Source: a virus
Virus record (IMG/VR): IMGVR_UViG_3300044974_000943
Reading direction: 5' to 3' (one strand)
DNA length: 64,000 nucleotides
Below the pieces are notes generated by a model. That model saw nothing but the letters and a program-made list of their open reading frames with translations. It was not told where the DNA came from and did not search any database. This document shows, one piece after another, positions 7,488 through 60,827 of the stretch. Both the position numbers and the translations under genes were made by a program. The first letter of the stretch is position 1; every line of letters starts with the position of its first letter.

Positions 7488-7871
7488 ATGCAACACTTCG
7501 CTAACTTTGCTCTTGGAGATACGGAATTAGGTAATCTTAATCGTCAAGCATATGAAAAAGCTAAAAAAACTGGAGACTGGACTCAGTACAAACAAATGCA
7601 AGCTCAACAGAAGCAAACATTTGATAGTAACAGAATAAATACCGCCACACAGAATGCACAAGCAGCTACACAGGCTAAGAGAACAGCAGCAGCAGAAGCG
7701 AAAAGAGTTGCAGGTCTTGGTGTAGGCGGAAAAGTTAAGCACTATGGAGGAAAGGCGCTAGGTGCGGCTGGGAAATTAGGCGGAGTAGCATTAACGGCTA
7801 GTTACGTTCTTCCAAGCCTTATGAGCTTGATGCCACAGAAGCCTCAGCCTGAACAAGAGCCTCCCTACTAG
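7488..7871 (+). CDS. MQHFANF-leader protein with Gly/Ala-rich hydrophobic C-terminus
   Basis: Starts MQHFANF like the 50-55 kb genes; isolated plus-strand gene within the minus-strand replication module. Confidence 0.8.
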   Translation: MQHFANFALGDTELGNLNRQAYEKAKKTGDWTQYKQMQAQQKQTFDSNRINTATQNAQAATQAKRTAAAEAKRVAGLGVGGKVKHYGGKALGAAGKLGGVALTASYVLPSLMSLMPQKPQPEQEPPY

Positions 7872-27670: not shown

Positions 27671-28165
27671 ATGACAGACTTCCGCCACATGAACTCGCCT
27701 CTCGAAGCTGACTTTGCTTTAGGCAATCTCGACCGCTTCCTAACTCGCGCCAAAGCAGACATCAAAACAACTGTAGGAGCCGTTAAGGACATCGCCAGCA
27801 AGAAAGCTTGGACTGACCCCAAGAAAAACGCCAGCTACACCGATTTAGGAAAAGGTGCATCCGAAGCCAAACAACGCGCCAACAAAGCTCTTCGTGATAA
27901 GAATGAAGCCAACAAAGCGGCAGAACGAGAGAAGACTGCTAAGGACACCACATTGAAGTATGTCGAGCCTCGCAAGCCAAGAGCGACGGCAGGGGCAGGA
28001 ACTGACAAGACTCAAGACTTCGTGGATAAGGTCAGAAAAGAGAATAAGGGTAAGCCAGTGATGGACGAAAGTAAATCAGCCGCGTCAAGAGATGGATTCA
28101 GCAACGACAAGCGCGAAACTGGCAAAGCTAAACCAATTAGTAAGAAAGACCAGATTAGATACTAG
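27671..28165 (+). CDS. Lys/Ala-rich protein with an ADFALG leader-like site; isolated plus-strand gene
   Basis: 164-aa ORF with an A-rich upstream region and TACAAT box; EADFALG resembles ANFALG of the 7488 protein. Confidence 0.7.
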   Translation: MTDFRHMNSPLEADFALGNLDRFLTRAKADIKTTVGAVKDIASKKAWTDPKKNASYTDLGKGASEAKQRANKALRDKNEANKAAEREKTAKDTTLKYVEPRKPRATAGAGTDKTQDFVDKVRKENKGKPVMDESKSAASRDGFSNDKRETGKAKPISKKDQIRY

Positions 28166-34816: not shown

Positions 34817-35163
34817 ATTATTCTAGGTTCTCTTAAATAAGGGTATCCATCGCTATATTCGTCACGCAATCTAAAGCCATATCTTTCATACCAATCCTCA
34901 AGTTGCTCAAGGGACAACCCTTTATGTGGAACACCTAAACAGACAGGCACTAATACAGCCGTGAAGCCAAGGGAATCAGCTAACCAACACACTTGACTTA
35001 ACAACCGACTACCAAGCTTCATGCCTCGAAATTGCGCTTCTACTTCGATTTCTTCCAAGATGATTTTCTTGTTGGTATGGTCGATAAGCAGATTCGCATT
35101 ACCTCGCCCTTGGGAGTCGCTTATTGTGGTTAGGATGTAGTGGGGCAGTAGTGAGTTAGTCAT
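34813..35163 (-). CDS. GNAT acetyltransferase
   Basis: QFRGMKLGSRLL motif A and WYERYGF. Confidence 0.8.
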   Translation of the reverse strand: MTNSLLPHYILTTISDSQGRGNANLLIDHTNKKIILEEIEVEAQFRGMKLGSRLLSQVCWLADSLGFTAVLVPVCLGVPHKGLSLEQLEDWYERYGFRLRDEYSDGYPYLREPRII

Positions 35164-36070
35164 GCTTGAACTCCCTTTTCACTACACGATATTTTGGGTC
35201 TGCATTCGGAAAAGCACTACTCCATCGTCTAGCTTCAGCAGCGTGTGCGTGAGCCATGATTTCTGAGGTGTGACCTCCAATTTTATCTGAACCAAGCCTT
35301 TCAGGATTCCAGTTTTTAGCGTCTTGCCATTGCCCATACTGAAAAGAAGATTTGTCGTAAGTATAGCAGTTCCATTGGACAAACCATCTGAAGTTTTGTG
35401 TAGGAGGTGCAACGTAATTTTCAAGTTGAGAAAAATCAAATTCCATAACATTACCCTTGAGGTAGAAAAAAGATAACTGAGTAAATAACCCAAGCATCAA
35501 CAATGAGTAGCGCCCAGAACCACCAATCGATACGAAAATCGAACTGAACTTGAGGAAGAACATCGTGTGCCAACTTCAGCGCGAGAATCGCGAGGGCAGA
35601 AAAGAATATGTAGAGTTTCATGCGGTAAGTCTCTCAATTAGCGATTGTGGGTTTGCAAATTGATGTTTGTAAACAGGTTTGCCTATAGCTTCCTCAACAA
35701 GACCGTGAAATGTGCTGAAAGTGTCGGTGCAAAGTAGTGGCTGGTTAAGTTGAAGTAGTGCAGCTTCTTTGACTGGCATAGTTTTCCACCAGCCAGATTG
35801 GGATAACTCGATAGCCTCTTGTTCCGTCAAGTCAGATTGCAGTTTTTCTTTGTAATTCATGATTTAGCCTGTAGTGTCAATGAAGCCTCGTCTCGAAGTC
35901 GAAGAACCAAACGCTTCTGGTCATCGGTCAGCACCCTTACATCCTCTTTCTGCCCACACTTGACAGCAGTATCAGCAGACATACAGGGGTCGCCAGTCTC
36001 AAGATAGTTTGCCCACATTTGTAGGGCGTGGAAATGTAGGTGTTTTGGTTTGCAGTTAAGAAAGTCCATG

Positions 36071-48883: not shown

Positions 48884-49635
48884 GCCCTAATTTTAAACTA
48901 TTTATTTTTTTGGGCTGTTTTTGGTGCTATACGCTATACAGGATAAGGCTTACACGATTTTAAAATTTATTTTTTGGCTAGTAGTCTATATATGTCTAAT
49001 TCTAGTGTCTAGTTATATCGGTTTACAGTGTGAGTTATTAGCTATTTAGGCGCTTGGTTATCTTGCTTGGTTGTATTGATAGGGTTTTATATTGGCTACC
49101 TACATTTTGGGGTTTTATTTTTTGGCTGTATGTTTGTTCACTGGAATGTCATTCTATTTTATTTTAAGTTACCCGAAAGTTTTAGTAATCGTATTTAATT
49201 CTCCTGAGTGAAAGTAATCTAAAAGGATGAGTGACTTAATTAAAATCGCTCAAACGATTATACTGTATAGGATGTATAATGTACTGTATCGGATTATACA
49301 ATGCAAAGAGTGATATTTATGTGAGAGATGTGATATTTGTCTTAGGGAAGTGATAGGGTTAAGAGATAGAATGTGAGGTTTGTGTGAGGGATAGAAGGGG
49401 TTTTGTTCGTGTCATGTACAGATACGGGAAATTTTCGGGAGTGAGAATGATTATCATTTTGCTTCGACCCCCTCGATATATCGATGCTCATCAATACCCC
49501 TATGCAATTAGTTGCACATATCCCTCTCATTTTGAGAACACGCACCTCTGCTACGCTGAATCGCCAAAAGCATACATAAGATGAAGCGAAGCGTAACGTG
49601 TCATAATATAGGCTAAACACACCATTAAAAACATC

Positions 49636-50109
49636 ATGACCCGTCACTTTACAATTGAAATCCTCGTTGACCGCAAAGCCAAACTTGCTATAGTTACTTA
49701 CAAAATTACGCCACTAATCCCATCCACATCAAGTAAAAATAGCTCCTTTCATATTGACGAGCTACCCAAAATCAAGCACAGCATCACTAACCTTGAATGT
49801 ATAAGCGCATTTGGTAACTGGTACGATTCAGAAAAAGAATTTTACGATACTTTCCCTTTTATATATTTTGACGAGTGGTTCAGTATTGGCTCTAACGAAC
49901 AAGGGTACTTTGATACAGAAAAACTTGATTACACACCTTTCATCGAAATCATCAAGACCTTCAAGACCCACGCCCCAAGCCCAGACCAATTTCCTACGCA
50001 ATCAGCTAAATGGCGTTGTCAGAGTAACTCTTTTCTAGCACAGCTAAAATACATCGAGCAGTATATTGAGTCTAAGTATTCCTACTGCTTTAAAAAAGGT
50101 GATTTATAA
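49636..50109 (+). CDS. Hypothetical protein, first gene of the plus-strand arm
   Basis: 157-aa ORF. Confidence 0.6.
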   Translation: MTRHFTIEILVDRKAKLAIVTYKITPLIPSTSSKNSSFHIDELPKIKHSITNLECISAFGNWYDSEKEFYDTFPFIYFDEWFSIGSNEQGYFDTEKLDYTPFIEIIKTFKTHAPSPDQFPTQSAKWRCQSNSFLAQLKYIEQYIESKYSYCFKKGDL

Positions 50110-50138
50110 TAAATAAATTAACTACGCAGTAAATCCTC

Positions 50139-50492
50139 ATGCAACACTTCGCAAATTTCGGAATCGAACAAGTAGCCAAACAAGGAATGGGCTATTTACA
50201 AAATAATCCTATTAAAGGTCTAGCTGCGGGTGGAGCTATAGGAGGAGCAATTCATGGTACAGGCATCCTAGAGACAGAAGAAGAAAAGGCTAAAACAACG
50301 GGTCTTGAACGTTTAGGTAAGATTGTAGGTAACAGCGCTCTTGGTGCAAGTACAGGAGCAGCTAGTGGCTATGCAATGCAAAAAGGAGGTCAGCTTGGCG
50401 CAAAATATGCTCGTCAGAAAAAAGCTGATGCAGATGCGCTTAATAAGGCTTTTCCTTTTGAATTAGATTTACCTGATGATTGGGCAAAATAG
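50139..50492 (+). CDS. MQHFANF-leader glycine-zipper protein
   Basis: Leader plus GGAIGGA...ETEEEKAKTTGLERLGKIVGN; paralog of the domain starting at 55455. Confidence 0.8.
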   Translation: MQHFANFGIEQVAKQGMGYLQNNPIKGLAAGGAIGGAIHGTGILETEEEKAKTTGLERLGKIVGNSALGASTGAASGYAMQKGGQLGAKYARQKKADADALNKAFPFELDLPDDWAK

Positions 50493-50769
50493 ATAGCTCA
50501 TTGCCGCAGGGCTAGGCTGCGCCGCCAAGAGTGACCCTCCAGAAGAAGGAGTAGTAATATAAGGCACACCAAAAACAATGGTTATTCAACGATTCCTCGA
50601 CGTTTGAGGCACTTCAATAAATATGCAAATTTGAAAGTATAGGCAGCAAACACTCGATATACCACTAGTTTTTTCTCGACTACCAATAGTTTTCAAACAG
50701 AAAAAGGCAGCATAGTTTTTCTAGTGCTATTGGTTATGCTATACTTATTGAATAGTAATAAAGACAGAT

Positions 50770-51450
50770 ATGAAGTATGCAAACCCCATAGAAGCTGATA
50801 CAATTGAGACATCGCTTGCTACCAGACCCATAGACATAGACGCGATTATAGAGACTGCAAACGACAGCAACTATAAAAACGTTCTAGGTGTGGTTTTAGG
50901 TTATCTTGTACAAACCGATAAAAACTTCGACACCTTAAAGAAAAATCAGGAACAAACTAACGCACAATTACGTGAGTTAATCGAGAGTGCTAAAGATACT
51001 AGAGTAACAGAAACCAAGTTAGCTAAGTTTTTTGTGACTGCGCCTTATTTACTAGACAAGTTTAACTATGATGCAGAAAATAAACAACTACTCTATAAAA
51101 ACTCCCCAATAAAAGACGGAGACGACTGTATAGCATTCTTATCGATAGATTTACAAAACTACTTCTCTGGGCATATACCTTACGGAGTACTGTTAACTGG
51201 TATTAAGCGTTACTTTGCAATTTTGCGTAGACAAGACAATATCCTTGTTAATTTCGTCGAAGAGTATCTTGAGGACTATTTCTCGACCTACACAACAAAA
51301 AAACGTACCCGCATTTACTTAAAAGATATTAAAAAAGCTTGTGAAGGCTATCCAGATAGCACCCAGAAGCTTCTAAAATCTATTATGGATGATTTAGGCT
51401 ACACAGAACACAAAGACACCTCAAGAGCCATTTATTACACAAAACCATGA
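50770..51450 (+). CDS. Hypothetical protein, paralog of 32014..32700
   Basis: 226 aa, extended -10 TGcTATACT upstream, coupled to a GIY-YIG gene. Confidence 0.7.
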   Translation: MKYANPIEADTIETSLATRPIDIDAIIETANDSNYKNVLGVVLGYLVQTDKNFDTLKKNQEQTNAQLRELIESAKDTRVTETKLAKFFVTAPYLLDKFNYDAENKQLLYKNSPIKDGDDCIAFLSIDLQNYFSGHIPYGVLLTGIKRYFAILRRQDNILVNFVEEYLEDYFSTYTTKKRTRIYLKDIKKACEGYPDSTQKLLKSIMDDLGYTEHKDTSRAIYYTKP

Positions 51451-51956
51451 CACAGACATTTATCTATGCTATCTACAACAAAACTAAAAATGAAGTAAAG
51501 ATTGGGTATTCTACTACCCCAGCTAAACGACTCTCCCAATTGCAAACAGGCAACTCTGACCGATTGGAGTTACTATGCACTTTTAAAGGGAGTGCTAAAA
51601 TAGAGGCTGAAATTCATGAAAGATTACACCAAGACCGTTTAATTGGGGAATGGTTTAGAATGTCTTCTTCTGTTTCCTATGTCTTGTCTGAATACAACTT
51701 TGCTAGTTTGCAATCTATTGTTGCAGACATTCCTAAAGTATTTGAGCAAGACCTATTAAAAATCTACAATGAGTTCATTTCCTCTAGCAAAACAAAGAAG
51801 CGCACTAGAGCGCCTTTAAAGTATCTTGTAGAGGCTTTTCCTAATTACACAAGAAAACAAGTCATCGCATCTTTAAAGTCTTCTAGTAGCTTTATAATAT
51901 TGCCAAATACAGATGGCAACGGAATATATGTATCTAAACAAACCAGCGTAGCTTAA
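51447..51956 (+). CDS. GIY-YIG (T5orf172/MUG113-like) nuclease-domain protein
   Basis: FIYAI...VKIGYS...RLSQLQTG...E..IH...GEWF. Confidence 0.82.
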   Translation: MTQTFIYAIYNKTKNEVKIGYSTTPAKRLSQLQTGNSDRLELLCTFKGSAKIEAEIHERLHQDRLIGEWFRMSSSVSYVLSEYNFASLQSIVADIPKVFEQDLLKIYNEFISSSKTKKRTRAPLKYLVEAFPNYTRKQVIASLKSSSSFIILPNTDGNGIYVSKQTSVA

Positions 51957-52141
51957 CCATGCCCAATCCTAAATCCCTCCCCCTGACCCTCAGCCTCCTT
52001 TTCTGTCCCATAGCGCCAGCGTTGAGCGCCAGCCAAGACTTCCACCCCAAAGTTCTCATCAACTGCTATACCTACTGCAAGCCAAGTCAGCGAAGTACAG
52101 TATAATAGAAACGTAGTAGGACAACCAGTTACACGATAATC

Positions 52142-52951
52142 ATGCAACACTTCGCCTCCTTTCAGTCGCCTTTAGCTTCATTTATCCGTTTAAGTGACAA
52201 AAACATCAACGCCGCTAGAGAATTGAGCGTTAGGAATTTAAGGGGTATAAACAAATCAGATAGTTTTATGAGTCTTAGTGGTCTAAAACCTACAGACAAT
52301 ACTAGTTTAACAAGGCACGATGCCATTCAACACACCCCCATAACTAAACAACATTACAAAACATTAGTAGGAAAAGACCCCAACCAGTATTTCCCCGAAG
52401 GCAGCTTAGCTAAAACTACAGGTATGAACACTACAATGCCGTTAGTCCCTAACGTACCTGAAAGAGTGAATACACCTATTGAATTAATGGCAGATACTCT
52501 AAGCGACCCCAGAAATAGAGCGCACGTTAGATTTACTGACAGTGTACCTCCTAATATCACACCAGACGTAATCCATAGCTATATTAAAAAGAAAAATACA
52601 GCCCCTGAAAGACTTGCAGCTATGCCACATTTAGGCTATGAAATTGAAAATGTTTCTAATCAACAATTCAGAGAGGACTTCATAAAAAGAATGCAAGGTG
52701 TTAAACCTAGACTACCACCTCAAAAACCAAAGTTACCAGATAAACCTTCCTTATATGACAAATACCAAGCTAGACAAAGCTTTACAGACAATTACCCTAA
52801 ATATAATGGACAGCAGTATGACGAGTGGGAAGCTAGAAAATTAACAGGGGGGTTGGAAGCAGGGCTTACCCCACTACCGCCAAAAACCGAAAACAAACTA
52901 CGCCAAATCTCTAACAGGAGATACGAAGAACAAAGGAACGCTAAAAACTAA
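52142..52951 (+). CDS. MQHFASF-leader protein of unknown function
   Basis: Leader; basic and Pro-rich; upstream TATAAT. Confidence 0.75.
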   Translation: MQHFASFQSPLASFIRLSDKNINAARELSVRNLRGINKSDSFMSLSGLKPTDNTSLTRHDAIQHTPITKQHYKTLVGKDPNQYFPEGSLAKTTGMNTTMPLVPNVPERVNTPIELMADTLSDPRNRAHVRFTDSVPPNITPDVIHSYIKKKNTAPERLAAMPHLGYEIENVSNQQFREDFIKRMQGVKPRLPPQKPKLPDKPSLYDKYQARQSFTDNYPKYNGQQYDEWEARKLTGGLEAGLTPLPPKTENKLRQISNRRYEEQRNAKN

Positions 52952-53166
52952 TGACCCCCGACGACACCACCACACCTACAGCAGCCAAGAAGCCCTCACC
53001 CAAGCTGCCTGACATCTTTCCCCCTAAGCTAGAAGAACTAAAAGGCATGACGGGCAAAAAAGCTGACAAGAAAATGCTGAAGAGTATCGCTAAACCGCCT
53101 CTCATGCCCAAGGCGTTGCAGAAAAAGAATGTCAGCGTCCAGCTCATCGAACGTATCAAGAGCTAA
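52951..53166 (+). CDS. Small Lys/Pro-rich protein
   Basis: 71 aa, coupled start/stop. Confidence 0.55.
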   Translation: MTPDDTTTPTAAKKPSPKLPDIFPPKLEELKGMTGKKADKKMLKSIAKPPLMPKALQKKNVSVQLIERIKS

Positions 53167-53170
53167 CACC

Positions 53171-53902
53171 ATGCAACATTTCGCTTCTTTCAGTAACAGC
53201 GCACGTAAGTCATTTACGCGCCAAAAGCAAGCTACACTTCTCGGTCAAGGCGCACCAAACTCTTCTTACGTTGACCGCATTCAAACTGCTCGTAGAGGTC
53301 AGCCAACACCCATTGATAGTCCTTACTACATCAGCCGCAACGAAGTGATGACACACCCACAAGATAATGAGGTTCTTGTTTCTGTCCAGCGTAAGCTAGC
53401 CAAGCTAGGTCAAGGTTATAGGAATGAACATGGAGTCAAATTAGGTCGCCCGACAGGGAAAGATGCAAATTATCGTAATGGGAGGTTAGTAGTTGGTAAT
53501 ATAGTAGAAGGAGATAAAAAAGGTCTACGTTTAAGTGGTAGTGAAATAAAAACTGAAGGTCGCTATCTGAACAAAGACTACATTGGCAACATCCACACTC
53601 ATCCCACATCACCTAAAAATAGCTTGGCAACTATACCTAGTATTGCCGACTTGAGATTAGATTACAGCAACCGTCAAGACTACTCAGTAAAACGTGATGA
53701 CCCTCGTGCAAGTAGTAAGCCATTTGAGAGCCTCATATTATCAACACCAGCAGGGAGAAAAGCTAAGACATCAGTAATTAGTTATAAACAGACTAAAGAA
53801 CTCCCTAGAGGACTTGAAAACTACAAATACGCTTATGAACAAAGTATCCCAGACATAAATAACCAGATAAAGGAACTGGGTGGTCAGTACAGTGTCTATT
53901 AA
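53171..53902 (+). CDS. MQHFASF-leader protein with a JAB/MPN-like metallopeptidase motif
   Basis: True start at ATG 53171; E...IGNIHTHP...PSIAD (JAMM-type HxH...SxxD). Confidence 0.7.
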   Translation: MQHFASFSNSARKSFTRQKQATLLGQGAPNSSYVDRIQTARRGQPTPIDSPYYISRNEVMTHPQDNEVLVSVQRKLAKLGQGYRNEHGVKLGRPTGKDANYRNGRLVVGNIVEGDKKGLRLSGSEIKTEGRYLNKDYIGNIHTHPTSPKNSLATIPSIADLRLDYSNRQDYSVKRDDPRASSKPFESLILSTPAGRKAKTSVISYKQTKELPRGLENYKYAYEQSIPDINNQIKELGGQYSVY

Positions 53903-54254
53903 AAAAAGTAAACCTAAGTTAGAGTTGGAGTCAGTCACCCGCGACAAAATTGCCTCGTTTTTTCGCTCTAGCGGCTATGTAGTCCAAAGGGAAGTAAAAA
54001 ATCCATTTGGTCGCGTAGATTGCCTTGTAAAAGAATATAAGCCCACTGGAGAGATTGTTCATCATGTAGTAGAGTGTAAGCGCGAGAATAGCAGCTATCA
54101 CCTCAAAGCAGCTATCGGACAATTGAGAATGTATGCTCAACACTACGGTTCCAACACCAAGCTCTACTTCTGCACTTCAGACAAATCTAAGTTATCCGAA
54201 GAAAGTAAAAGAATCATGGCTGCCAATCCCGATATTCTCTATAAGGTATTCTAA
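53880..54254 (+). CDS. PD-(D/E)XK nuclease-like protein
   Basis: QREV...GRVDCL...VECK...AIGQLRMY. Confidence 0.7.
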   Translation: MVSTVSIKKSKPKLELESVTRDKIASFFRSSGYVVQREVKNPFGRVDCLVKEYKPTGEIVHHVVECKRENSSYHLKAAIGQLRMYAQHYGSNTKLYFCTSDKSKLSEESKRIMAANPDILYKVF

Positions 54255-54277
54255 TAATATACAGAACAAATAACATC

Positions 54278-54895
54278 ATGCAACACTTCGCAAACTTTGG
54301 TAAAGTAAATCTACAAAACTTGCAAAAAATGCAAAAATTAGATTTAACAAATACCAACCAATTATTTCTACAAAGGTCTGGCTTGACAAACGAGCATCCC
54401 GCTTTTACTAACACAGCTATGGAGATTCACGACGGACTTACACATAGTAAAATTAAACCCAGTCTAAATAAATATTTACCGAAAGTGGAGTACAAAGAAA
54501 GACCTCAAGACTTCCTACACTTAAATCCATCAGGTAAAAAAGATTTGGCAGACCACAGATACAACCAAGAAGTTGAAAAAATTGGTTTAGGTATTGATGG
54601 TATAGGTAGAAAAAATAGGCAACCTTTAACTGTCATAGGTAATGCCATACGAAAAAAAGAACTAAGTCCTGTTGAACAATTAGCTACACAACACAGAAAT
54701 GAGGAAGTATATAGACTAAGGTATTACAACAATACTCCAGCAACTCAAGATGATGTGAGCAAAGTAATTAGTTCCTTAAGAGAAGCAGCCGCGCCCAAAA
54801 GAGGAAGGGGCATTAGGAAAGCTAGAGGTGTAAAACCTGAGCCACAAGAGTTGGACTTTAAAAAAATAAAGTTGGAAGGTCGTTATGGAATCTAA
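54278..54895 (+). CDS. MQHFANF-leader basic protein
   Basis: Leader; 205 aa. Confidence 0.75.
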   Translation: MQHFANFGKVNLQNLQKMQKLDLTNTNQLFLQRSGLTNEHPAFTNTAMEIHDGLTHSKIKPSLNKYLPKVEYKERPQDFLHLNPSGKKDLADHRYNQEVEKIGLGIDGIGRKNRQPLTVIGNAIRKKELSPVEQLATQHRNEEVYRLRYYNNTPATQDDVSKVISSLREAAAPKRGRGIRKARGVKPEPQELDFKKIKLEGRYGI

Positions 54896-55835
54896 CTTCG
54901 CCCGAATCCGCAACGCCAAACCACTCCTCCTCACACCAGAGAAGCGTGTACTACACTTCCCTGCTACAAACAAGGTACGCATCGACAACAACGTAAACGC
55001 CGAACCACAATATCGCAAAAGTGCTGAAAAATACTCTCGCCAAGAGTTTGATACAGCCAATCAGGTCGCCTCGCTTCCTCAAAGAATAACTCCACCCGTC
55101 AGTGGGTATACAGAAAAAGGAAACTTACATAGCTATGCTCAAGGCTATGGTGGTAACGCCGTTGACTTAGATGCAATGTCACCAAAAGAACAATATAAAC
55201 TTGGCTCCCAAATTGGACGACAACAAAACGCGCTCAGACAAAACTACCTTGGACACACAGACCTCCACTCTGGCAACATAGTTAGACCCAACCCAAGCAA
55301 ACGAAAAGCCTACTTGATAGACAACGATTCATTCCAACCAATCAACGATTTTTATGACGAGAAACTATTAAAAAATCTACACCATGAGAACGGGCTAGGG
55401 AAGCCATTTACTACAGGTTATAATAGCAGCATAAACTTTACACAACAAAAACAGATGCAACATTTCGCTAATTTCGGTTTCACAAATCCTCTACCTGCAA
55501 TGGTAGATAAAGCCCGTCCATATTGGCACAACATTCAAGATGCTGGTAGGGCAGCTAAAGCAGTAGGTCAAGGGTTTGCACGGGACAGAGGAGTACAAAT
55601 TGGTGCTGGTATTGGCGCTGCTGCTGGACTAGTTAAAGGTTCTGGTGTCGGTGAATCAGAAGAAGAGAAAGCTAGAACTACAGGATTAGGGCGCTTAGGT
55701 AAACTAGTCGGTAATGCTGGTGTTGGCGGCGTTGTCGGTGGAGGGCTAGGTTTGACAGGAAGTATAGCCACAGAAGCTTTAAAAGATGGATATGCAATTG
55801 CAAAAAGATATCGCCGTTACAATATCGACGACTAA
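54885..55835 (+). CDS. Kinase/phosphotransferase-like domain fused in frame to an internal MQHFANF glycine-zipper protein (internal ATG 55455)
   Basis: HTDLHSGNIV...LIDND catalytic-loop-like motifs; internal TATAAT near 55419 and MQHFANF at residue 191. Confidence 0.72.
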   Translation: MESNFARIRNAKPLLLTPEKRVLHFPATNKVRIDNNVNAEPQYRKSAEKYSRQEFDTANQVASLPQRITPPVSGYTEKGNLHSYAQGYGGNAVDLDAMSPKEQYKLGSQIGRQQNALRQNYLGHTDLHSGNIVRPNPSKRKAYLIDNDSFQPINDFYDEKLLKNLHHENGLGKPFTTGYNSSINFTQQKQMQHFANFGFTNPLPAMVDKARPYWHNIQDAGRAAKAVGQGFARDRGVQIGAGIGAAAGLVKGSGVGESEEEKARTTGLGRLGKLVGNAGVGGVVGGGLGLTGSIATEALKDGYAIAKRYRRYNIDD

Positions 55836-56566
55836 TCCTCATCATCATCCTCCTCTATCTGACTAAGGAGTTGCAATTTCTTTTGTAGCTCCTTTTGCAG
55901 TTTCTCGCGCTCTTTAGGATTCTTCAGCCTCTCGACTGTCTTACTACGATTCAGTGTCTCCAATAGCTCTTGATTAGTTTTGGGTGCTTGCTCCATCACC
56001 TTACCATGCATCTCATGCAACATTTTTAGCCCCTTGATGCCTTCAGTCAGCGCCTTCAGGTTGACCTTACTATATTCACGCAAGTCCACATCACCGTCAG
56101 CGTCCACAGCCTCAAGTAAGTCGCCATACTCTTGCTCAAGCCCTAAGTTAATCAGCTTCATGCCCTTACGAATGATAGCCAGCGAGTTCGCCTCAGTCTC
56201 GCTCTCCTCATTAGTGAAATAGCCAAGCTCAGTACCAAGCGCCTCCTCCTGTACTCGCGCCAAGTAACTATCACGCAATCCGCCCCAACTCTCGATAGCC
56301 GACTTCTTTGTTAGCTGACTAACTCCAACACCAAACTCCTCAGCAAGCTCTTGCAAGTTATAGCTCTCAGACCAGATTCTCGTATGCCCAGTTTCCTCGT
56401 CGAACTCCTCAATACGCTTGCCAAGAATATATGCACGTTTGATATCCGTCCAGTTCACCCAGCTTGTCTTGCTGAGCTTATGTATTGTTATCTTTTGCAT
56501 TTCGGGCTGTTCACTATTCAAATTGCGTAGTGATTGCAGCTTTTGTTCTATGTTATTGTTGCTCAT
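55832..56566 (-). CDS. Putative terminase small subunit (HTH)
   Basis: WTDIKRAYILG...LQELAEEFGV...ESW pattern typical of TerS N-termini; near TerL. Confidence 0.55.
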   Translation of the reverse strand: MSNNNIEQKLQSLRNLNSEQPEMQKITIHKLSKTSWVNWTDIKRAYILGKRIEEFDEETGHTRIWSESYNLQELAEEFGVGVSQLTKKSAIESWGGLRDSYLARVQEEALGTELGYFTNEESETEANSLAIIRKGMKLINLGLEQEYGDLLEAVDADGDVDLREYSKVNLKALTEGIKGLKMLHEMHGKVMEQAPKTNQELLETLNRSKTVERLKNPKEREKLQKELQKKLQLLSQIEEDDDED

Positions 56567-56885
56567 TACTTCTCAAGATTTCTTTTTTCTGCACCCCGAA
56601 CGGAGTGGGGTTGTTGTCTATGTAATCTACCACGCTTTGTTTTGGGCTGTATAGCTTCAAGTCCAGTTCTTTATGCGTTACTACCCACACCATCACTGCA
56701 TTAGCCGCCACAATATTCTTTTCTGACGGCATGATGACCTTCAAGTACTCGATAGTGCGTGGATTCTTAGCGTCGCACTTAGCAAAATCAATCAAGAACT
56801 GGACACCAATAGTATCAGGTGGTATGTAGCGCTTGACTGGCTGCTTGAGAATGCTGTCTTTAATCTGAACTTTGAATCGAGCCAA
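56553..56885 (-). CDS. Hypothetical protein
   Basis: 110-aa ORF divergent from TerL. Confidence 0.55.
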   Translation of the reverse strand: MARFKVQIKDSILKQPVKRYIPPDTIGVQFLIDFAKCDAKNPRTIEYLKVIMPSEKNIVAANAVMVWVVTHKELDLKLYSPKQSVVDYIDNNPTPFGVQKKEILRSNEQQ

Positions 56886-56937
56886 GTGGTTTTAGGCAGA
56901 ATGCTATACTACCCAATATATCACGATATACATATAA

Positions 56938-58611
56938 ATGACAAGCGCACGAAGTAAGCAAAAGCAATCAAATGACATGAGTGAAGCCGAACTCCGCAAG
57001 ATGAGTGACGCGCTCGATGATGTGTTGGCAGAAAAAGCAAGTAAGAAGTTGCGCCATTTCTATGCATGGGCTTGGGGGTTTCATCAAGGCGTTTCTTTAG
57101 AGAAAAATTGGCACATTGATTGTGTTGCTGAACACGTAGAGGCAGCTTTAAACCGCCAAATAAAGCGGTTAATCGTTACTGTACCTCCTCGTAGCGGGAA
57201 GACGACCATTACCTCTATTTCTGCCCCAGCATTTAGGTGGATATCTCACCCTGAAGAAAAATTCTATCTAAGTTCGCACAAACTAGGATTATGTACCAGT
57301 AACCTTATTGCAACTAGAAATATTGTCAATCACCCAGACTATAAAAATAGGTACTGTAACCCAGACAGTCAGTGGTTTAGCTTTAAATTGTCAGATGACC
57401 AATCAACTAAAACTAAGATTAGCAATACAGGTAAAGGAGAAATAAACATATCATCTCCTGATACAGGGATTATCGGTAGTGGAGGAACTGTATTTCTCAT
57501 AGATGACATTATCGATGAAGAGATGTACAAGAATGAGTCTATACGAGAACAAAGAAACAAATGGGTAACTGACCAACTATTCGGAAGAACTAACGATTTT
57601 AACTCAGATGTCCGAATAGCTATCAACCAAAGATTAGGCGATAGTGACCTTGTAAATCACCTACACAATAAATTTATAGGTGAAGACTGTTTTTTTGAGC
57701 TTTGTGTTCCTGCTGAGTTTGCTAAGCGTAAGACGTACTTCTCGCCTTTAGGGGAAAAATGGAACGACCCCAGAAAAAAGGAAGGGGAGTTACTAGATAA
57801 AAATAGAATACCTTTGAAATTGTTAGATGGACTAGACCCCATAAGACGTAAGACTCTATTCAATCAAGACCCGTCAGGTGGCGGTAAGGGTATCACGCTT
57901 GACGAGAAAGATATTCGCATTGTGTCACAGAAGCCAACTAAGATGGACTCGATGCTTATTATGTGGGATTTGACCTTTGCGGCATCAGAAGCGTCTACAA
58001 GCTGGAATCTCGGCGCAGTGGTAGGCAGAAAAGAAGATAACTACTATGTCATTGACGGCATTCGCGCTAAGCTGGACATCGTAGGGCAAATGGCAGCTAT
58101 TAAAAAGTTAGCTAAAAAATATCCTCAAGCTGAAATTGGTGTTGAGGCAAAAGCTAATGGTGAAGCAGTGATGCGGTTACTGGCTAGTGAGTTCCCTAAC
58201 ATTGTACCTTTCAGACCTAGCGTGTGGGGCGGCAAGACACAGGCAGACAAAGAAAGGCGATTTGGTGCTGCTGTACCTTTCATTAAAAATGGGCAACTGT
58301 ATTTCTACAAACCTCATTCAACCGACTACACTCTTGACGAGACATACGACCCAGACCACGCTATTAATGAGTTGGTTGGATTCCCGCTATTTTCAACTAA
58401 CGAGTGGGTAGACGATGTAAGTTATGCAATCGGCTACCTAAGCCAAAAAACCAGCAACAGTACCATCATGCTATTTGGCGACAGCGACCACAAACTTACT
58501 GAAGACGAGTATTGGGCAAAACACGACTCAAGTTATAATGAATCCAATGACTTCTTTATTTTCACTGATAGCGTACCTAGCACAGAAGATATCAATAGTA
58601 TTCAATTCTAG
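56938..58611 (+). CDS. terL: Terminase large subunit
   Basis: Walker A PPRSGKT, Walker B LIDD, NQR coupling motif, nuclease WD...EAKANG...WVDD. Confidence 0.93.
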   Translation: MTSARSKQKQSNDMSEAELRKMSDALDDVLAEKASKKLRHFYAWAWGFHQGVSLEKNWHIDCVAEHVEAALNRQIKRLIVTVPPRSGKTTITSISAPAFRWISHPEEKFYLSSHKLGLCTSNLIATRNIVNHPDYKNRYCNPDSQWFSFKLSDDQSTKTKISNTGKGEINISSPDTGIIGSGGTVFLIDDIIDEEMYKNESIREQRNKWVTDQLFGRTNDFNSDVRIAINQRLGDSDLVNHLHNKFIGEDCFFELCVPAEFAKRKTYFSPLGEKWNDPRKKEGELLDKNRIPLKLLDGLDPIRRKTLFNQDPSGGGKGITLDEKDIRIVSQKPTKMDSMLIMWDLTFAASEASTSWNLGAVVGRKEDNYYVIDGIRAKLDIVGQMAAIKKLAKKYPQAEIGVEAKANGEAVMRLLASEFPNIVPFRPSVWGGKTQADKERRFGAAVPFIKNGQLYFYKPHSTDYTLDETYDPDHAINELVGFPLFSTNEWVDDVSYAIGYLSQKTSNSTIMLFGDSDHKLTEDEYWAKHDSSYNESNDFFIFTDSVPSTEDINSIQF

Positions 58612-58621
58612 ACCTAACCGC

Positions 58622-58999
58622 ATGACCAACCCCAAAGACTACATCACAGACAAAATAGTATACAGCGCCTCGCTATCCTTCCCAATGGCTAAGGTCAAAA
58701 TGTTCATGCTTCATTGGCGCGACCTTGTAGTGGCTCTAGATTTAAGTACTCAACAACGCCAATTGTATTTTCTGTCTCAGGTGCTGTATCTGACTAGAGA
58801 GTTCTTGTACCAAAACGATTTTGACCTACTTTATAAAATTGCAAACGACTGGAAAAAATACAGCCTCAATAAATTAGCAGACATAGGCGACCTCTATGGA
58901 ATCATCAGGATACTCAACCCTATTGAGCATGACTTGACTAGCCTTGAATACCTTGAACGTCTAGATAACCAATTAACACCAGCTTGTGTCAATTCTTAA
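58622..58999 (+). CDS. Hypothetical protein
   Basis: Likely start MTNPKDY after the TerL stop. Confidence 0.55.
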   Translation: MTNPKDYITDKIVYSASLSFPMAKVKMFMLHWRDLVVALDLSTQQRQLYFLSQVLYLTREFLYQNDFDLLYKIANDWKKYSLNKLADIGDLYGIIRILNPIEHDLTSLEYLERLDNQLTPACVNS

Positions 59000-60827
59000 A
59001 CACACCTTAAACAGCGACTCACTACCAGCACCACACGAAATTGCTGTTGGTGAACTTGTCTTAGCGCTTAAAGATGAGCAAGCAGTTCTTTATACGAAGG
59101 ACTTCACTGGCAAAGTACTGGAGATTGGCAAGGGGGTTCAGAAGTTTACGGAGCTTCAAGATATCAATATAACTAATGCGCGTGAAGGCGATTTCCTAGT
59201 CAAGCAAGGCAACGGTTTTACAGCAACATCACAGATTGGCAGTCTCACTAGGCTTAGTGATGTAGAAATAAACAGTCCCACAAATGGACAGTATTTGCGC
59301 TATGACGCGCTTCGTGAAGCCTATGTGAATGCAAGTCCAGATTATGCATTGTCACAGCTTACAGACGTAGATTTAAGCACACTAGAAAACAATCAAGTAT
59401 TGTATTGGGACGCAACCGCAGCAAGATGGAAGCCTCGCAATAGAATCAACTTAGTAAATGAACTTGATGACGTTGAGATAACTCCAACTACAGGATTAGT
59501 AGACGACCCACACCGATTCCAAATACTTTCACTTGATGTTGGCGGGACTGTCTGGAGCAATCAAGACCTGCAAATTGTTCGTGACCCTAACCCGACATTG
59601 GGTGCAAACCTTAACGCCAATGGCAATTATCTTTATAATTCTTTTACTAATATTGGTACAGTGGTGGGTAATGCTCCCACTATTAATCTGCCTTATGTTA
59701 CTGCGGATTATTGGATTGTAACGGGTGTAGCCGTAGAAACTCAATCACAGTGCATCTTGTTGCCACAAATCGCGCCAGCAAATAATCAAGCAGCCGTGAT
59801 GTTGATTGAGATACGGCAAAACACTGGTCAGATTCTCATTGGCGGTCTAACTAACGTCAAGTACGAAGATGGTAGAGCTATCAAGCTATCAGGCAATGGC
59901 AAAACTGACATCATCACAGTACTGGTTCAAAACGTCGGGGGAACAATTACTACTTACGTCACAGCAACTGCACTTAATATAGCTGCGCTGGGGCAAGGCG
60001 GAATACCTGCATGGCGATATGACATCGTAGATAACCAAGCACAACTACTGGCGGCTCCTAAACTATACGACGACTATTTCAAGTATGTCAAACTATTACT
60101 CGACTTTGAGGCGCAATCATGGCGCAGCAAGCTTTGGTATGAGGACAAGAGTAGCTTATCAGTTCCAGTTGCAATATTAGGGGTAACGCAACAAGATACT
60201 GACATCACGACCTTCGGCATCCCTAACCAAATTGCAGAGTTCGATAACAGCATCGACACCATTACCATCACCCCTGCTGCCACTATCAATGTCACAGGCG
60301 ACTTCACATTTGAATTTTATCTGCAATACCAAAACACAGCATTTTACGAATCAACTACGTCAGTCACACACAAATATTTTGACTCAACCAACTTTAAGAT
60401 TAGTTATACAGGTCAATTAACAACCAGTACACAAAACCTCACGTTCACTCTGGTTATTGGCGCTAACACCTACACATTTGATAACGCCAACCGACTTTTT
60501 AGATACCAGAACAGCCGCTACATATTCTTTTCTGTCACGCGAGTTGGGACGAGCATCAAGGTGCATTGTGATGGTCAATTGTTGACAGAAAAAACAGGGC
60601 TTATGATTGATTCTGGAGTTACTAATTTAGCTATCTCTTCGGCAACTATAAGTATGATTGGGCGACTTGATTCAGTTCGATTGACGGTAGGTAAAGGTCG
60701 CTATACAGATGCAGTTTATCAGCCTCCAGCTATGAGGTTTGGGCGCTTGGGTGGTCTTGAAGATGTAGTTCACTCGCAGTCGTTCAATTACTTTCACCAC
60801 AGTATTGGTAATCAGATATTCTCATGA
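58986..60827 (+). CDS. Virion structural/tail-fibre protein with repeats and a C-terminal LamG/concanavalin-like domain
   Basis: Repeated L.DV.I...G..L.(Y/W)D units; GDFTFEFY; LDSVRLTVGKGRY. Confidence 0.72.
   Translation: MSILKHTLNSDSLPAPHEIAVGELVLALKDEQAVLYTKDFTGKVLEIGKGVQKFTELQDINITNAREGDFLVKQGNGFTATSQIGSLTRLSDVEINSPTNGQYLRYDALREAYVNASPDYALSQLTDVDLSTLENNQVLYWDATAARWKPRNRINLVNELDDVEITPTTGLVDDPHRFQILSLDVGGTVWSNQDLQIVRDPNPTLGANLNANGNYLYNSFTNIGTVVGNAPTINLPYVTADYWIVTGVAVETQSQCILLPQIAPANNQAAVMLIEIRQNTGQILIGGLTNVKYEDGRAIKLSGNGKTDIITVLVQNVGGTITTYVTATALNIAALGQGGIPAWRYDIVDNQAQLLAAPKLYDDYFKYVKLLLDFEAQSWRSKLWYEDKSSLSVPVAILGVTQQDTDITTFGIPNQIAEFDNSIDTITITPAATINVTGDFTFEFYLQYQNTAFYESTTSVTHKYFDSTNFKISYTGQLTTSTQNLTFTLVIGANTYTFDNANRLFRYQNSRYIFFSVTRVGTSIKVHCDGQLLTEKTGLMIDSGVTNLAISSATISMIGRLDSVRLTVGKGRYTDAVYQPPAMRFGRLGGLEDVVHSQSFNYFHHSIGNQIFS

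Follow-up and report, generated by a model that had tools for sequence, protein, structure and literature searches.

The DNA analysed here, a window of 64,000 nucleotides from the virus record IMGVR_UViG_3300044974_000943, encodes a set of otherwise mostly unrelated proteins that begin with the same heptapeptide, MQHFANF or MQHFASF. This tag is probably an N-terminal propeptide, in the shortest of its forms and the most common, that marks cargo for the phage head and is clipped after its Phe, and the propeptide is likely to be carried by otherwise unrelated accessory virion proteins of the Pseudanabaena siphophages that resemble Pam2 and PA-SR01. The leader would draw a protein into the assembling procapsid, a prohead serine protease with the fold of herpesvirus assemblin and T4 gp21 would cut after the leader Phe, and the mature cargo would remain in the head and presumably exit with the DNA. 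The cargo set would comprise Gly-zipper modules, a kinase-like protein, a JAB-like protein and small basic proteins, with the M-x-H-F half of the tag probably supplying docking or recognition. We infer cleavage, targeting, head location and ejection of the tagged proteins from comparisons of genes and genomes, together with published virion data from a relative.

The virus record is a single contig of 142,452 bp, and the window is its reverse strand from 13119 to 77118. Genome coordinates given below run along the reverse-complemented genome, in which position p of the window is position p + 65334. The large terminase is 84% identical to that of PA-SR01 and 82% identical to that of Pam2, and on such sequence comparison the window is part of a 142-kb relative of these two Pseudanabaena siphophages.

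Distribution and conservation of the tag

All six copies of the heptapeptide picked out in an earlier reading of the letters alone (the sequence-only reading) were recovered. Five stand at the starts of open reading frames (ORFs) at window positions 7488, 50139, 52142, 53171 and 54278, and the sixth is internal, at 55455 within the ORF 54885-55835. Composition predicts 3.4e-5 MQHFA(N/S)F heptapeptides in a six-frame translation and none appeared in 200 shuffles. The DNA of the tag is ATGCAACAYTTCGCN(AAY/TCY)TTY, with differences at third codon positions only, apart from the Asn/Ser codon, and the DNA upstream of the tagged starts is unrelated among copies. The reported synonymous variation is thus real, and it is the peptide rather than the DNA that is conserved. 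Two variant leaders that had been named also proved genuine: MESNF (54885) stands before a conserved ARIRNAK and EADF:ALGN (27671) is likewise a leader, the colon here and below marking the boundary between leader and body.

Beyond the window the genome has a seventh exact-type copy, two of MRHF(V/A)NF and one minus-strand MKHFTHF (the sequences read there are MQHFADF, MRHFVNF, MRHFANF and MKHFTHF), which brings the whole genome to at least ten. The minus-strand copy begins a 56-amino-acid (aa) ORF, MKHFTHF AKAHSSGANF:ANIYQTGLQNL, at 107154-107322 on the plus strand of the record (G000), which corresponds to genome coordinates 35131-35299, outside the window and minus in its orientation. This ORF is conserved in Pam2 (gp52) and PA-SR01, and tagged genes are therefore not confined to the plus strand. 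About ten copies of the form M-x-H-F-[ATVS]-x-F are present in each of the genomes of Pam2 and PA-SR01, and a pattern scan of IMG/VR recovered the tag again in metagenomic relatives, so that the proposed motif search in related phages had a positive outcome. Among 27 tagged N-termini from the three genomes H3, F4 and F7 are invariant (27/27). Position 2 admits Q, R, K, E and I, position 5 A, V, T and S, and position 6 N, D, H, S and K, while G, A and S predominate at position 8. Across all tagged sequences compared, residue 2 is Q, K, R, E, I or M while the H and F stay.

A tag of this kind might instead act as nucleic acid, either by helping to initiate translation (for example as a downstream box) on mRNAs that lack a Shine-Dalgarno sequence, or by offering microhomology at which gene cassettes are swapped. 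No Shine-Dalgarno-like sequence precedes the tagged starts, 14 nucleotides (ATGCAACAYTTCGC) are near-identical among them, and tagged genes relocate among related genomes, the JAB-like gene adjoining the terminase here and lying in the tail region in Pam2. Such a role is nevertheless very improbable given the wobble differences, the variation of residue 2 beside a constant H and F, the unrelated upstream DNA, the conservation of in-frame internal copies and the recurrence of A-x-F deep within polyproteins. The TATAAT-like boxes reported ahead of several tagged genes have no support beyond chance: a count of full sigma-70-like promoters in 49500-57000 gave 13, and shuffled sequence gave 15.1. 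The placing of the tagged genes beside the terminase applies to five copies, whereas 7488 and 27671 each stand alone on the plus strand, amid genes of the minus strand.

That the bodies behind the tag are mostly unrelated was upheld by BLAST with the leaders stripped, except that those following 50139 and 55455 are related (1e-7) and are one Gly-zipper module. Pfam and PHROG searches gave no family for any tagged protein of the window. Simple paralogy as the source of the common start was rejected, because the bodies are unrelated and because leaders vary by whole units while bodies are fixed.

Tagged proteins in the virion of Pam2

The description of Pam2 flags the proteins that were detected by mass spectrometry (MS) of purified particles (PMC9382816, Table S2). 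This table records presence or absence only, and the MS-positive proteins were translated here to read their N-termini. Seven of the nine N-terminally tagged proteins of Pam2 are MS-positive against 20 of the 182 others (Fisher p = 1.6e-5), and with the internally tagged gp189 included the figures are 8/10 and 19/181 (p = 2.2e-6). Those both N-terminally tagged and detected are gp39, gp41, gp42, gp44 (with a GTG start, VEHFANF), gp118, gp186 and gp187 (MIHFANF). The cluster upstream of the Pam2 terminase allows neighbours to be compared: the tagged gp186, gp187 and gp189 are positive, whereas the untagged gp183, gp184 (GIY-YIG), gp185 and gp188 (nuclease) are negative, and virion presence therefore tracks the tag and not the locus. 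The window ORFs 52142, 54885 and 27671 are orthologous to the MS-positive gp186, gp189 and gp146. The expectation that tag-bearing proteins are virion proteins is thus borne out, in the relative Pam2, by published mass spectrometry.

The A-x-F core and its exchange between leaders and linkers

The tripeptide A[NSDE]F occurs 54 times in late-strand proteins against 19.4 expected (~2.8-fold) and 16 times in early-strand proteins against 18.2. Seven control tripeptides were unenriched (2-43 occurrences, near composition), and A[NSDE]F is likewise enriched in Pam2 (56 vs 20.4) and PA-SR01 (46 vs 18.7). It is densest in proteins of the head module. A 678-aa head polyprotein (genome coordinates 139994-142030), which starts MNKKPLLQKANF: and is the orthologue of the MS-positive Pam2 gp17, contains six sites against 0.58 expected, with four (S/N)K.IRKSA(N/S)F linkers between Gly-rich modules. 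A scaffold-like protein has three sites (0.18 expected) and the predicted protease two (0.29 expected), and additional sites are held by the cargo ORFs that neighbour the polyprotein. The sequence-only reading had proposed a genome scan for A-x-F sites, and the polyprotein, the scaffold-like protein and the protease are where that scan found enrichment. The A-[NSDE]-F class is common to head polyproteins, scaffold-like protein and protease, and the functional core of the tag is probably its last three residues. The idea of a modular 7-aa address tag stands in so far as a common leader is set on unrelated bodies, but the heptapeptide is one form of a wider A-[NSDE]-F class of leaders and linkers.

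In every orthologue set the conserved body starts directly after the last x-x-F. The leaders consist of either one 7-residue unit or two, and each unit closes with small-x-Phe. Seeded with ORF 50139, jackhmmer found a single Gly-zipper module (GSGxxESEEEK...GLxRxGK) in twelve places, among them two in the head polyprotein, the C-terminal half of ORF 54885 and four PA-SR01 genes. The module is preceded by M(Q/K)HFANF, MRKSANF, MNKKxLLxKA(N/E)F, an internal IRKSA(S/E)F or an internal QKQM(Q/R)HFA(N/D)F. The linker SKSIRKSASF:GIIPTG of the present phage aligns to the start of a separate PA-SR01 gene, MPPSNYSASF:GLLNG. Leaders and linkers are thus interchangeable, and polyprotein modules and stand-alone tagged genes interconvert. 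A-x-F is the best candidate for the protease site, to judge from its enrichment in head linkers, its position at module boundaries and its presence on both flanks of the protease, as had been anticipated.

The capsid protein (L038:17134-18381, minus strand, outside the window) starts MAMSPIESF:LKEARAAK, with ...PIEAF:LKE in Pam2 and MYIESW:LKE in a distant relative. The aromatic residue that directly precedes the conserved body suggests that a short N-terminal peptide is removed from the capsid protein as well. Neither the capsid protein nor the FGYVKQANK family has a relative of solved structure.

A predicted prohead protease

The predicted prohead protease is encoded at genome coordinates 134770-135792 (L037:6661-7683:-), just upstream of the head cargo ORFs. 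It has a weak match to PHROG 976, head maturation protease (E 2.7e-4), and the authors of the PA-SR01 genome obtained an HHpred match of the orthologous protein to the Mu-like prophage I protein. At E up to 1, Pfam assigned none of 33 members of the clade to a protease family (S77, S78 or Mu-like I), and PDB sequences searched with a profile yielded no match. Homologues numbered 74 in a first search and 276 clusters in a profile search. D83, H84 (in C-x-D-H-K-K), S147 (in S-V-S-M-G), E161 and S163 are invariant in 33 homologues, from which H84 and S147 are inferred to be the catalytic residues.

In the AlphaFold model (m33e15d772391) residues 32-178 are confident, and the ANF sites at 18-20 and 186-188 lie in the flanking low-confidence linkers. 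An exhaustive VIA-align search returned two matches at Z >=8, the varicella-zoster virus protease (1vzv_A; Z 9.3, root mean square deviation 3.1, 113 residues) and T4 gp21 (5jbl_A; Z 8.7, deviation 4.4, 130 residues). Foldseek placed herpesvirus proteases (human cytomegalovirus, Kaposi's sarcoma-associated herpesvirus and herpes simplex virus) at the top with a probability of 0.85-0.87 and a weak E of 0.08. On these model comparisons the protease has the herpesvirus-assemblin/T4 gp21 fold. F20 and F324 are nearly invariant, and a C-terminal x-x-F followed by a basic tail recurs in many of 145 further representatives inspected, remote ones included, all of which fits self-processing sites. Leaders, linkers and scaffold sites are arranged in the same way in a distant relative with a protease of 48% identity. 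Among the representatives of the protease family (P0100-P0193), many are 400-550 aa long, with a C-terminal region of Gly/Ala-rich, zipper-like sequence and a basic tail, so that the protease of those phages appears to be joined to a module of the type that is cargo here. No report of a prohead protease that cuts after Phe was found in a literature search that covered few subscription journals.

A protease of the host has also to be considered. In Staphylococcus phage 80alpha the capsid protein (...LNLQHF:ASNN), the scaffold and ribosomal protein L27 have a common site for the cysteine protease Prp (PMC9405229 Table 1, PMC5744158). MQHF:A(S/N) equals P3-P1' of the 80alpha capsid site and the staphylococcal-phage motif is likewise found on non-homologous virion proteins. 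Cutting of QHF:A by a host Prp-type enzyme is, however, scarcely credible here. PF04327 (Prp) was absent from the phage and from all 71 genomes searched in the order to which a Pseudanabaenaceae genome belongs, while B. subtilis, T. maritima and L. lactis, run as controls, were positive. That genome was reached by a degenerate pattern built on a conserved peptide of D1 (PsbA); a contig scan with the phage PhoH protein, aimed at host genomes, gave no match. L27 in five genomes of the order has the short form, starting MAHKKG without the N-terminal extension ending ...QFF:A of the long form, and most sites in the phage are without Ala at P1'. Host Prp processing was rejected on the absence of PF04327 and the short L27, and the likeness of the sites is convergence.

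Alternative functions and destinations

The same peptide might act without being cut, as a docking peptide whose M-x-H-F-A-x-F or x-x-F units bind a pocket on the capsid interior, the scaffold or the portal, in the manner of encapsulin cargo-loading peptides or of the C-terminal tail of the HK97 protease. The repeats of the polyprotein would then be multiple docking sites. The invariance of H3, F4 and F7 exceeds what a P3-P1 site needs, the tag is associated with virion presence, and the C-terminal x-x-F and basic tail of the protease family resemble a capsid-binding tail. Set against these, the motif falls exactly at domain and module boundaries and in predicted disordered linkers that flank the protease domain; three sites lie in the scaffold-like protein, and Pam2 gp18 (scaffold-like) and gp14 (protease) are absent from virions; and a free leader length before a fixed body start is the signature of a propeptide that is removed. 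An uncut docking peptide is on these grounds unlikely.

A destination outside the head, such as the tail tip, baseplate or fibres, or an assembly chaperone, in either case independent of the prohead protease, is suggested by the tagged, MS-positive gp39, gp41, gp42 and gp44 of Pam2 and by the gene at genome coordinate 21862 of the present phage (outside the window), which lie between tail-protein and tail-fibre genes. Leaders and linkers are, however, densest in the protease-scaffold-capsid module. The identified tail proteins (the tape measure and the orthologues of Pam2 gp22-gp33) are without such leaders, which head and cargo proteins carry, and the Gly-zipper module ties stand-alone tagged genes to the head polyprotein. 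Such an address is accordingly improbable.

Several observations weigh against a head-cargo propeptide clipped after Phe. The location of those five genes in the tail-gene region is one. Another is that Pam2 gp37 (JAB-like) and the 55-aa gp52 are tagged yet were not detected by MS. The Pam2 table gives presence or absence and no neo-N-termini, so that cleavage is proposed from sequence comparison. Internal copies keep their Met, which fits internal translation starts as well (in the kinase-like ORF and in a PA-SR01 helicase), and the AlphaFold model of 54885, made from a 6-sequence alignment, has a mean pLDDT of 40, the linker position of its internal tag being judged from conservation. Finally, M-x-H-F is strictly conserved though second units have free P7-P4 residues; conservation beyond what an A-x-F site needs implies a second function.

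It is possible, if doubtful, that M-x-H-F-A-x-F is a complete portable cargo-loading code for an HK97-fold capsid, in which M-x-H-F docks and A-x-F releases the cargo by way of a prohead protease clade with Phe at P1, and which evolves by duplication of 7-residue units and splitting of polyproteins. As speculation, docking might occur via a free N-terminus with His3, formally a metal-binding X-X-His; a bulky second residue should keep the Met, and such an N-terminus is therefore formally possible.

Tagged genes and their neighbours

The ORF at 7488..7871 (+, 127 aa) begins MQHFANF:ALGDTELG... and is isolated among minus-strand genes. Its PA-SR01 orthologue (85% identity) has a two-unit leader, MQHFAHF NSQNANF:ALGDTELG, and a matching body, and Pam2 gp118, which is MS-positive, resembles it in the C-terminal part only. 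The variant-leader ORF at 27671..28165 (+, 164 aa) begins MTDFRHMNSPLEADF:ALGNL..., and its Pam2 orthologue gp146 (84% identity) starts MTDFKFMNSPLGNEADF:AIGNL. The tagged Gly-zipper module protein at 50139..50492 (+, 117 aa) begins MQHFANF:GIEQ... and contains GxxxG runs followed by GTGILETEEEKAKTTGLERLGK. The ORF at 52142..52951 (+, 269 aa) has a two-unit leader, MQHFASF QSPLASF:IRLSDKNINAAR, and a body that begins IRLS after the second unit. Its orthologues begin MQHFTHF ATTTANF:IRLS in Pam2 gp186, MQHFTHF GSSTASF:VRLT in PA-SR01 and MQHFANF:IRLS in IMG/VR locus L034.

The ORF at 53171..53902 (+, 243 aa) begins MQHFASF:SNSARKSF TRQKQ... and looks JAB/JAMM-like through its relatives. Two of 21 homologues match Pfam PF14464 (Prok-JAB), and relatives have the canonical HSHP-x7-S-x-x-D; the protein itself has HTHP-x11-S-I-A-D (HTHP...PSIAD, a 5-residue insertion) and no direct Pfam match, and its Atlas score of 0.87 is a lead only. 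The leaders MQHFxSF, MKHFTNF, MINFANF, MSDF and the two-unit MQHFTSF LPSNSVSDF stand before one conserved body in this family, of which the MS-negative Pam2 gp37 is the orthologue (61% identity). For the basic ORF at 54278..54895 (+, 205 aa), MQHFANF:GKVNLQNLQK..., a comparison with Pam2, PA-SR01 and the IMG/VR loci that were fetched returned no homologue at a threshold of E 1e-6.

The two-part ORF at 54885..55835 (+, 316 aa) consists of MESNF:ARIRNAK, a kinase-like half (HTDLHSGN), the internal tag QKQ-MQHFANF-GF (55455..55475, +) and a Gly-zipper module. The fusion of the kinase-like and Gly-zipper halves is in frame in 6/6 aligned sequences, and the Pam2 orthologue is gp189 (55% identity). 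In the alignment M191, Q192, H193, F194, A195 and F197 form an invariant island, after which conservation falls sharply and indels begin; the internal tag may be a processing site or an internal start. An Atlas feature search with residues 1-190 gave 0.94-0.96 to RIO1, APH, Kdo and OspG kinase clusters. Within the HTDLHSGN of the family H124, D126, H128 and N131 are invariant, with no Pfam match, and for Pam2 gp189 the published annotation (PMC9382816), from HHpred with a value of 0.94, is casein kinase I homologue. The N-terminal half thus looks kinase-like from its sequence. Window 54885-55454 would be a minimal kinase-like domain with an invariant H-x-D-x-H-x-x-N, and, as gp189 is a virion protein in Pam2, the gp189-type protein is a candidate injected cyanophage kinase.

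Untagged genes lie among these. At window 50770-51956 a 226-aa ORF is coupled to a GIY-YIG/T5orf172 nuclease (PF13455, 4.9e-14; PF10544); the pair, whose counterparts are the MS-negative gp183 and gp184, looks like a homing-endonuclease cassette. A PD-(D/E)XK nuclease (PF08011, 4e-7) at 53880-54254, also between tagged genes, is the counterpart of the MS-negative gp188. The Pam2 orthologue of window 58986-60827, gp3, is MS-positive, lies right after the terminase and is labelled 'botulinum neurotoxin type B', and that of a 1050-aa ORF starting at window 63076, gp7, is labelled 'adaptor'. In L166, a distant relative, the ~1050-aa ORF has a counterpart with only faint matches to Toxin_R_bind_N and Laminin_G_3, and the toxin name of gp3 looks like an annotation artefact of a common binding-domain fold. 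In the head module of PA-SR01 an SNF2/DEAD-like helicase (L014:25081-26877, minus) has MEHFANF at residues 128-134, behind a 127-residue N-terminal part with two twin-arginine-like motifs, RRNFLKN and RRQFLKN. Its sequence suggests that the helicase is tagged and possibly packaged.

Comparison with known systems

The capsid-targeting sequence of T4, found on IPI-III and Alt and processed by gp21, is alike in being a short N-terminal peptide on unrelated virion proteins, in the fold of its protease, in cargo that includes enzymes and in ending with the (here predicted) P3-x-P1 motif of the protease. For gp21 that motif is L/I-x-E. The present phage differs in being a cyanobacterial siphophage, in a predicted P1 of Phe and not Glu, and in a tag of 7 residues that is near-invariant and modular in 7-residue units; the motif here also joins polyprotein modules that are separate genes in sister phages. 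Its protease does not belong to the gp21 family at the level of sequence, and the loading function of its tag is a prediction. The proteases gp175 of phiKZ and gp245 of SPN3US (A-X-E) remove propeptides from head and ejection proteins, in which several sites are possible, and trim their own C-terminus (PMC10052503). These giant phages share N-terminal propeptides that end at a three-residue motif with Ala at P3, but their propeptides are mostly 111-254 residues long and differ by protein, whereas those here are of 4-20 residues and stereotyped; they are myoviruses of 240-280 kb with Glu at P1, as against a 142-kb siphovirus with a predicted Phe.

The Prp/L27 motif of Firmicutes phages (80alpha capsid protein and scaffold; phi13 tail protein) is similar in its QHF:AS, its N-terminal position on non-homologous virion proteins and the cut after Phe, but its enzyme is a cysteine protease of the host, for which the genomes searched in the host order gave no gene, and the motif needs L-x-L-Q upstream and Ala at P1'. 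The herpesvirus assemblin and HK97 proteases are comparable in fold, in an invariant His and Ser, in a gene that adjoins scaffold or capsid and in predicted self-processing at both domain ends. They differ in site specificity, assemblin cutting (V/L)-x-A:S and HK97 gp4 cutting after Lys, and no Pfam model recognises the clade described here. In encapsulins a terminal peptide of ~10 residues is enough to bring unrelated cargo into a shell of HK97 fold. Encapsulin peptides offer a functional analogy for the putative docking role of the M-x-H-F half, but they are usually C-terminal, uncut and of different sequence. The literature search described above found no paper that contains MQHFANF or MQHFA. 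By analogy the tag resembles targeting and processing of the T4/phiKZ type, and what would be new is the Phe at P1, a near-invariant and modular 7-residue tag, and the exchange between polyprotein and gene.

Significance

If the favoured explanation is true, no natural virion-loading tag known from tailed phages would be shorter or more uniform than MQHFA(N/S)F, and its enzyme would represent a clade of Phe-cutting prohead proteases, with 276 sequence clusters, that Pfam does not recognise. The tag would also allow foreign proteins to be loaded into the heads of cyanophages through a handle of 7 residues, with relevance to phage-based bloom control. Polyprotein modules and stand-alone tagged genes can be seen turning into each other in these genomes. 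A complete portable code, if it exists, would let a phage swap injected enzymes such as a kinase, a JAB protease or a helicase. For the widespread freshwater cyanophages the head-cargo propeptide would provide a simple rule that predicts which proteins are packaged, and probably injected, and the set so predicted includes kinase-like, JAB-like and many Gly-zipper proteins.

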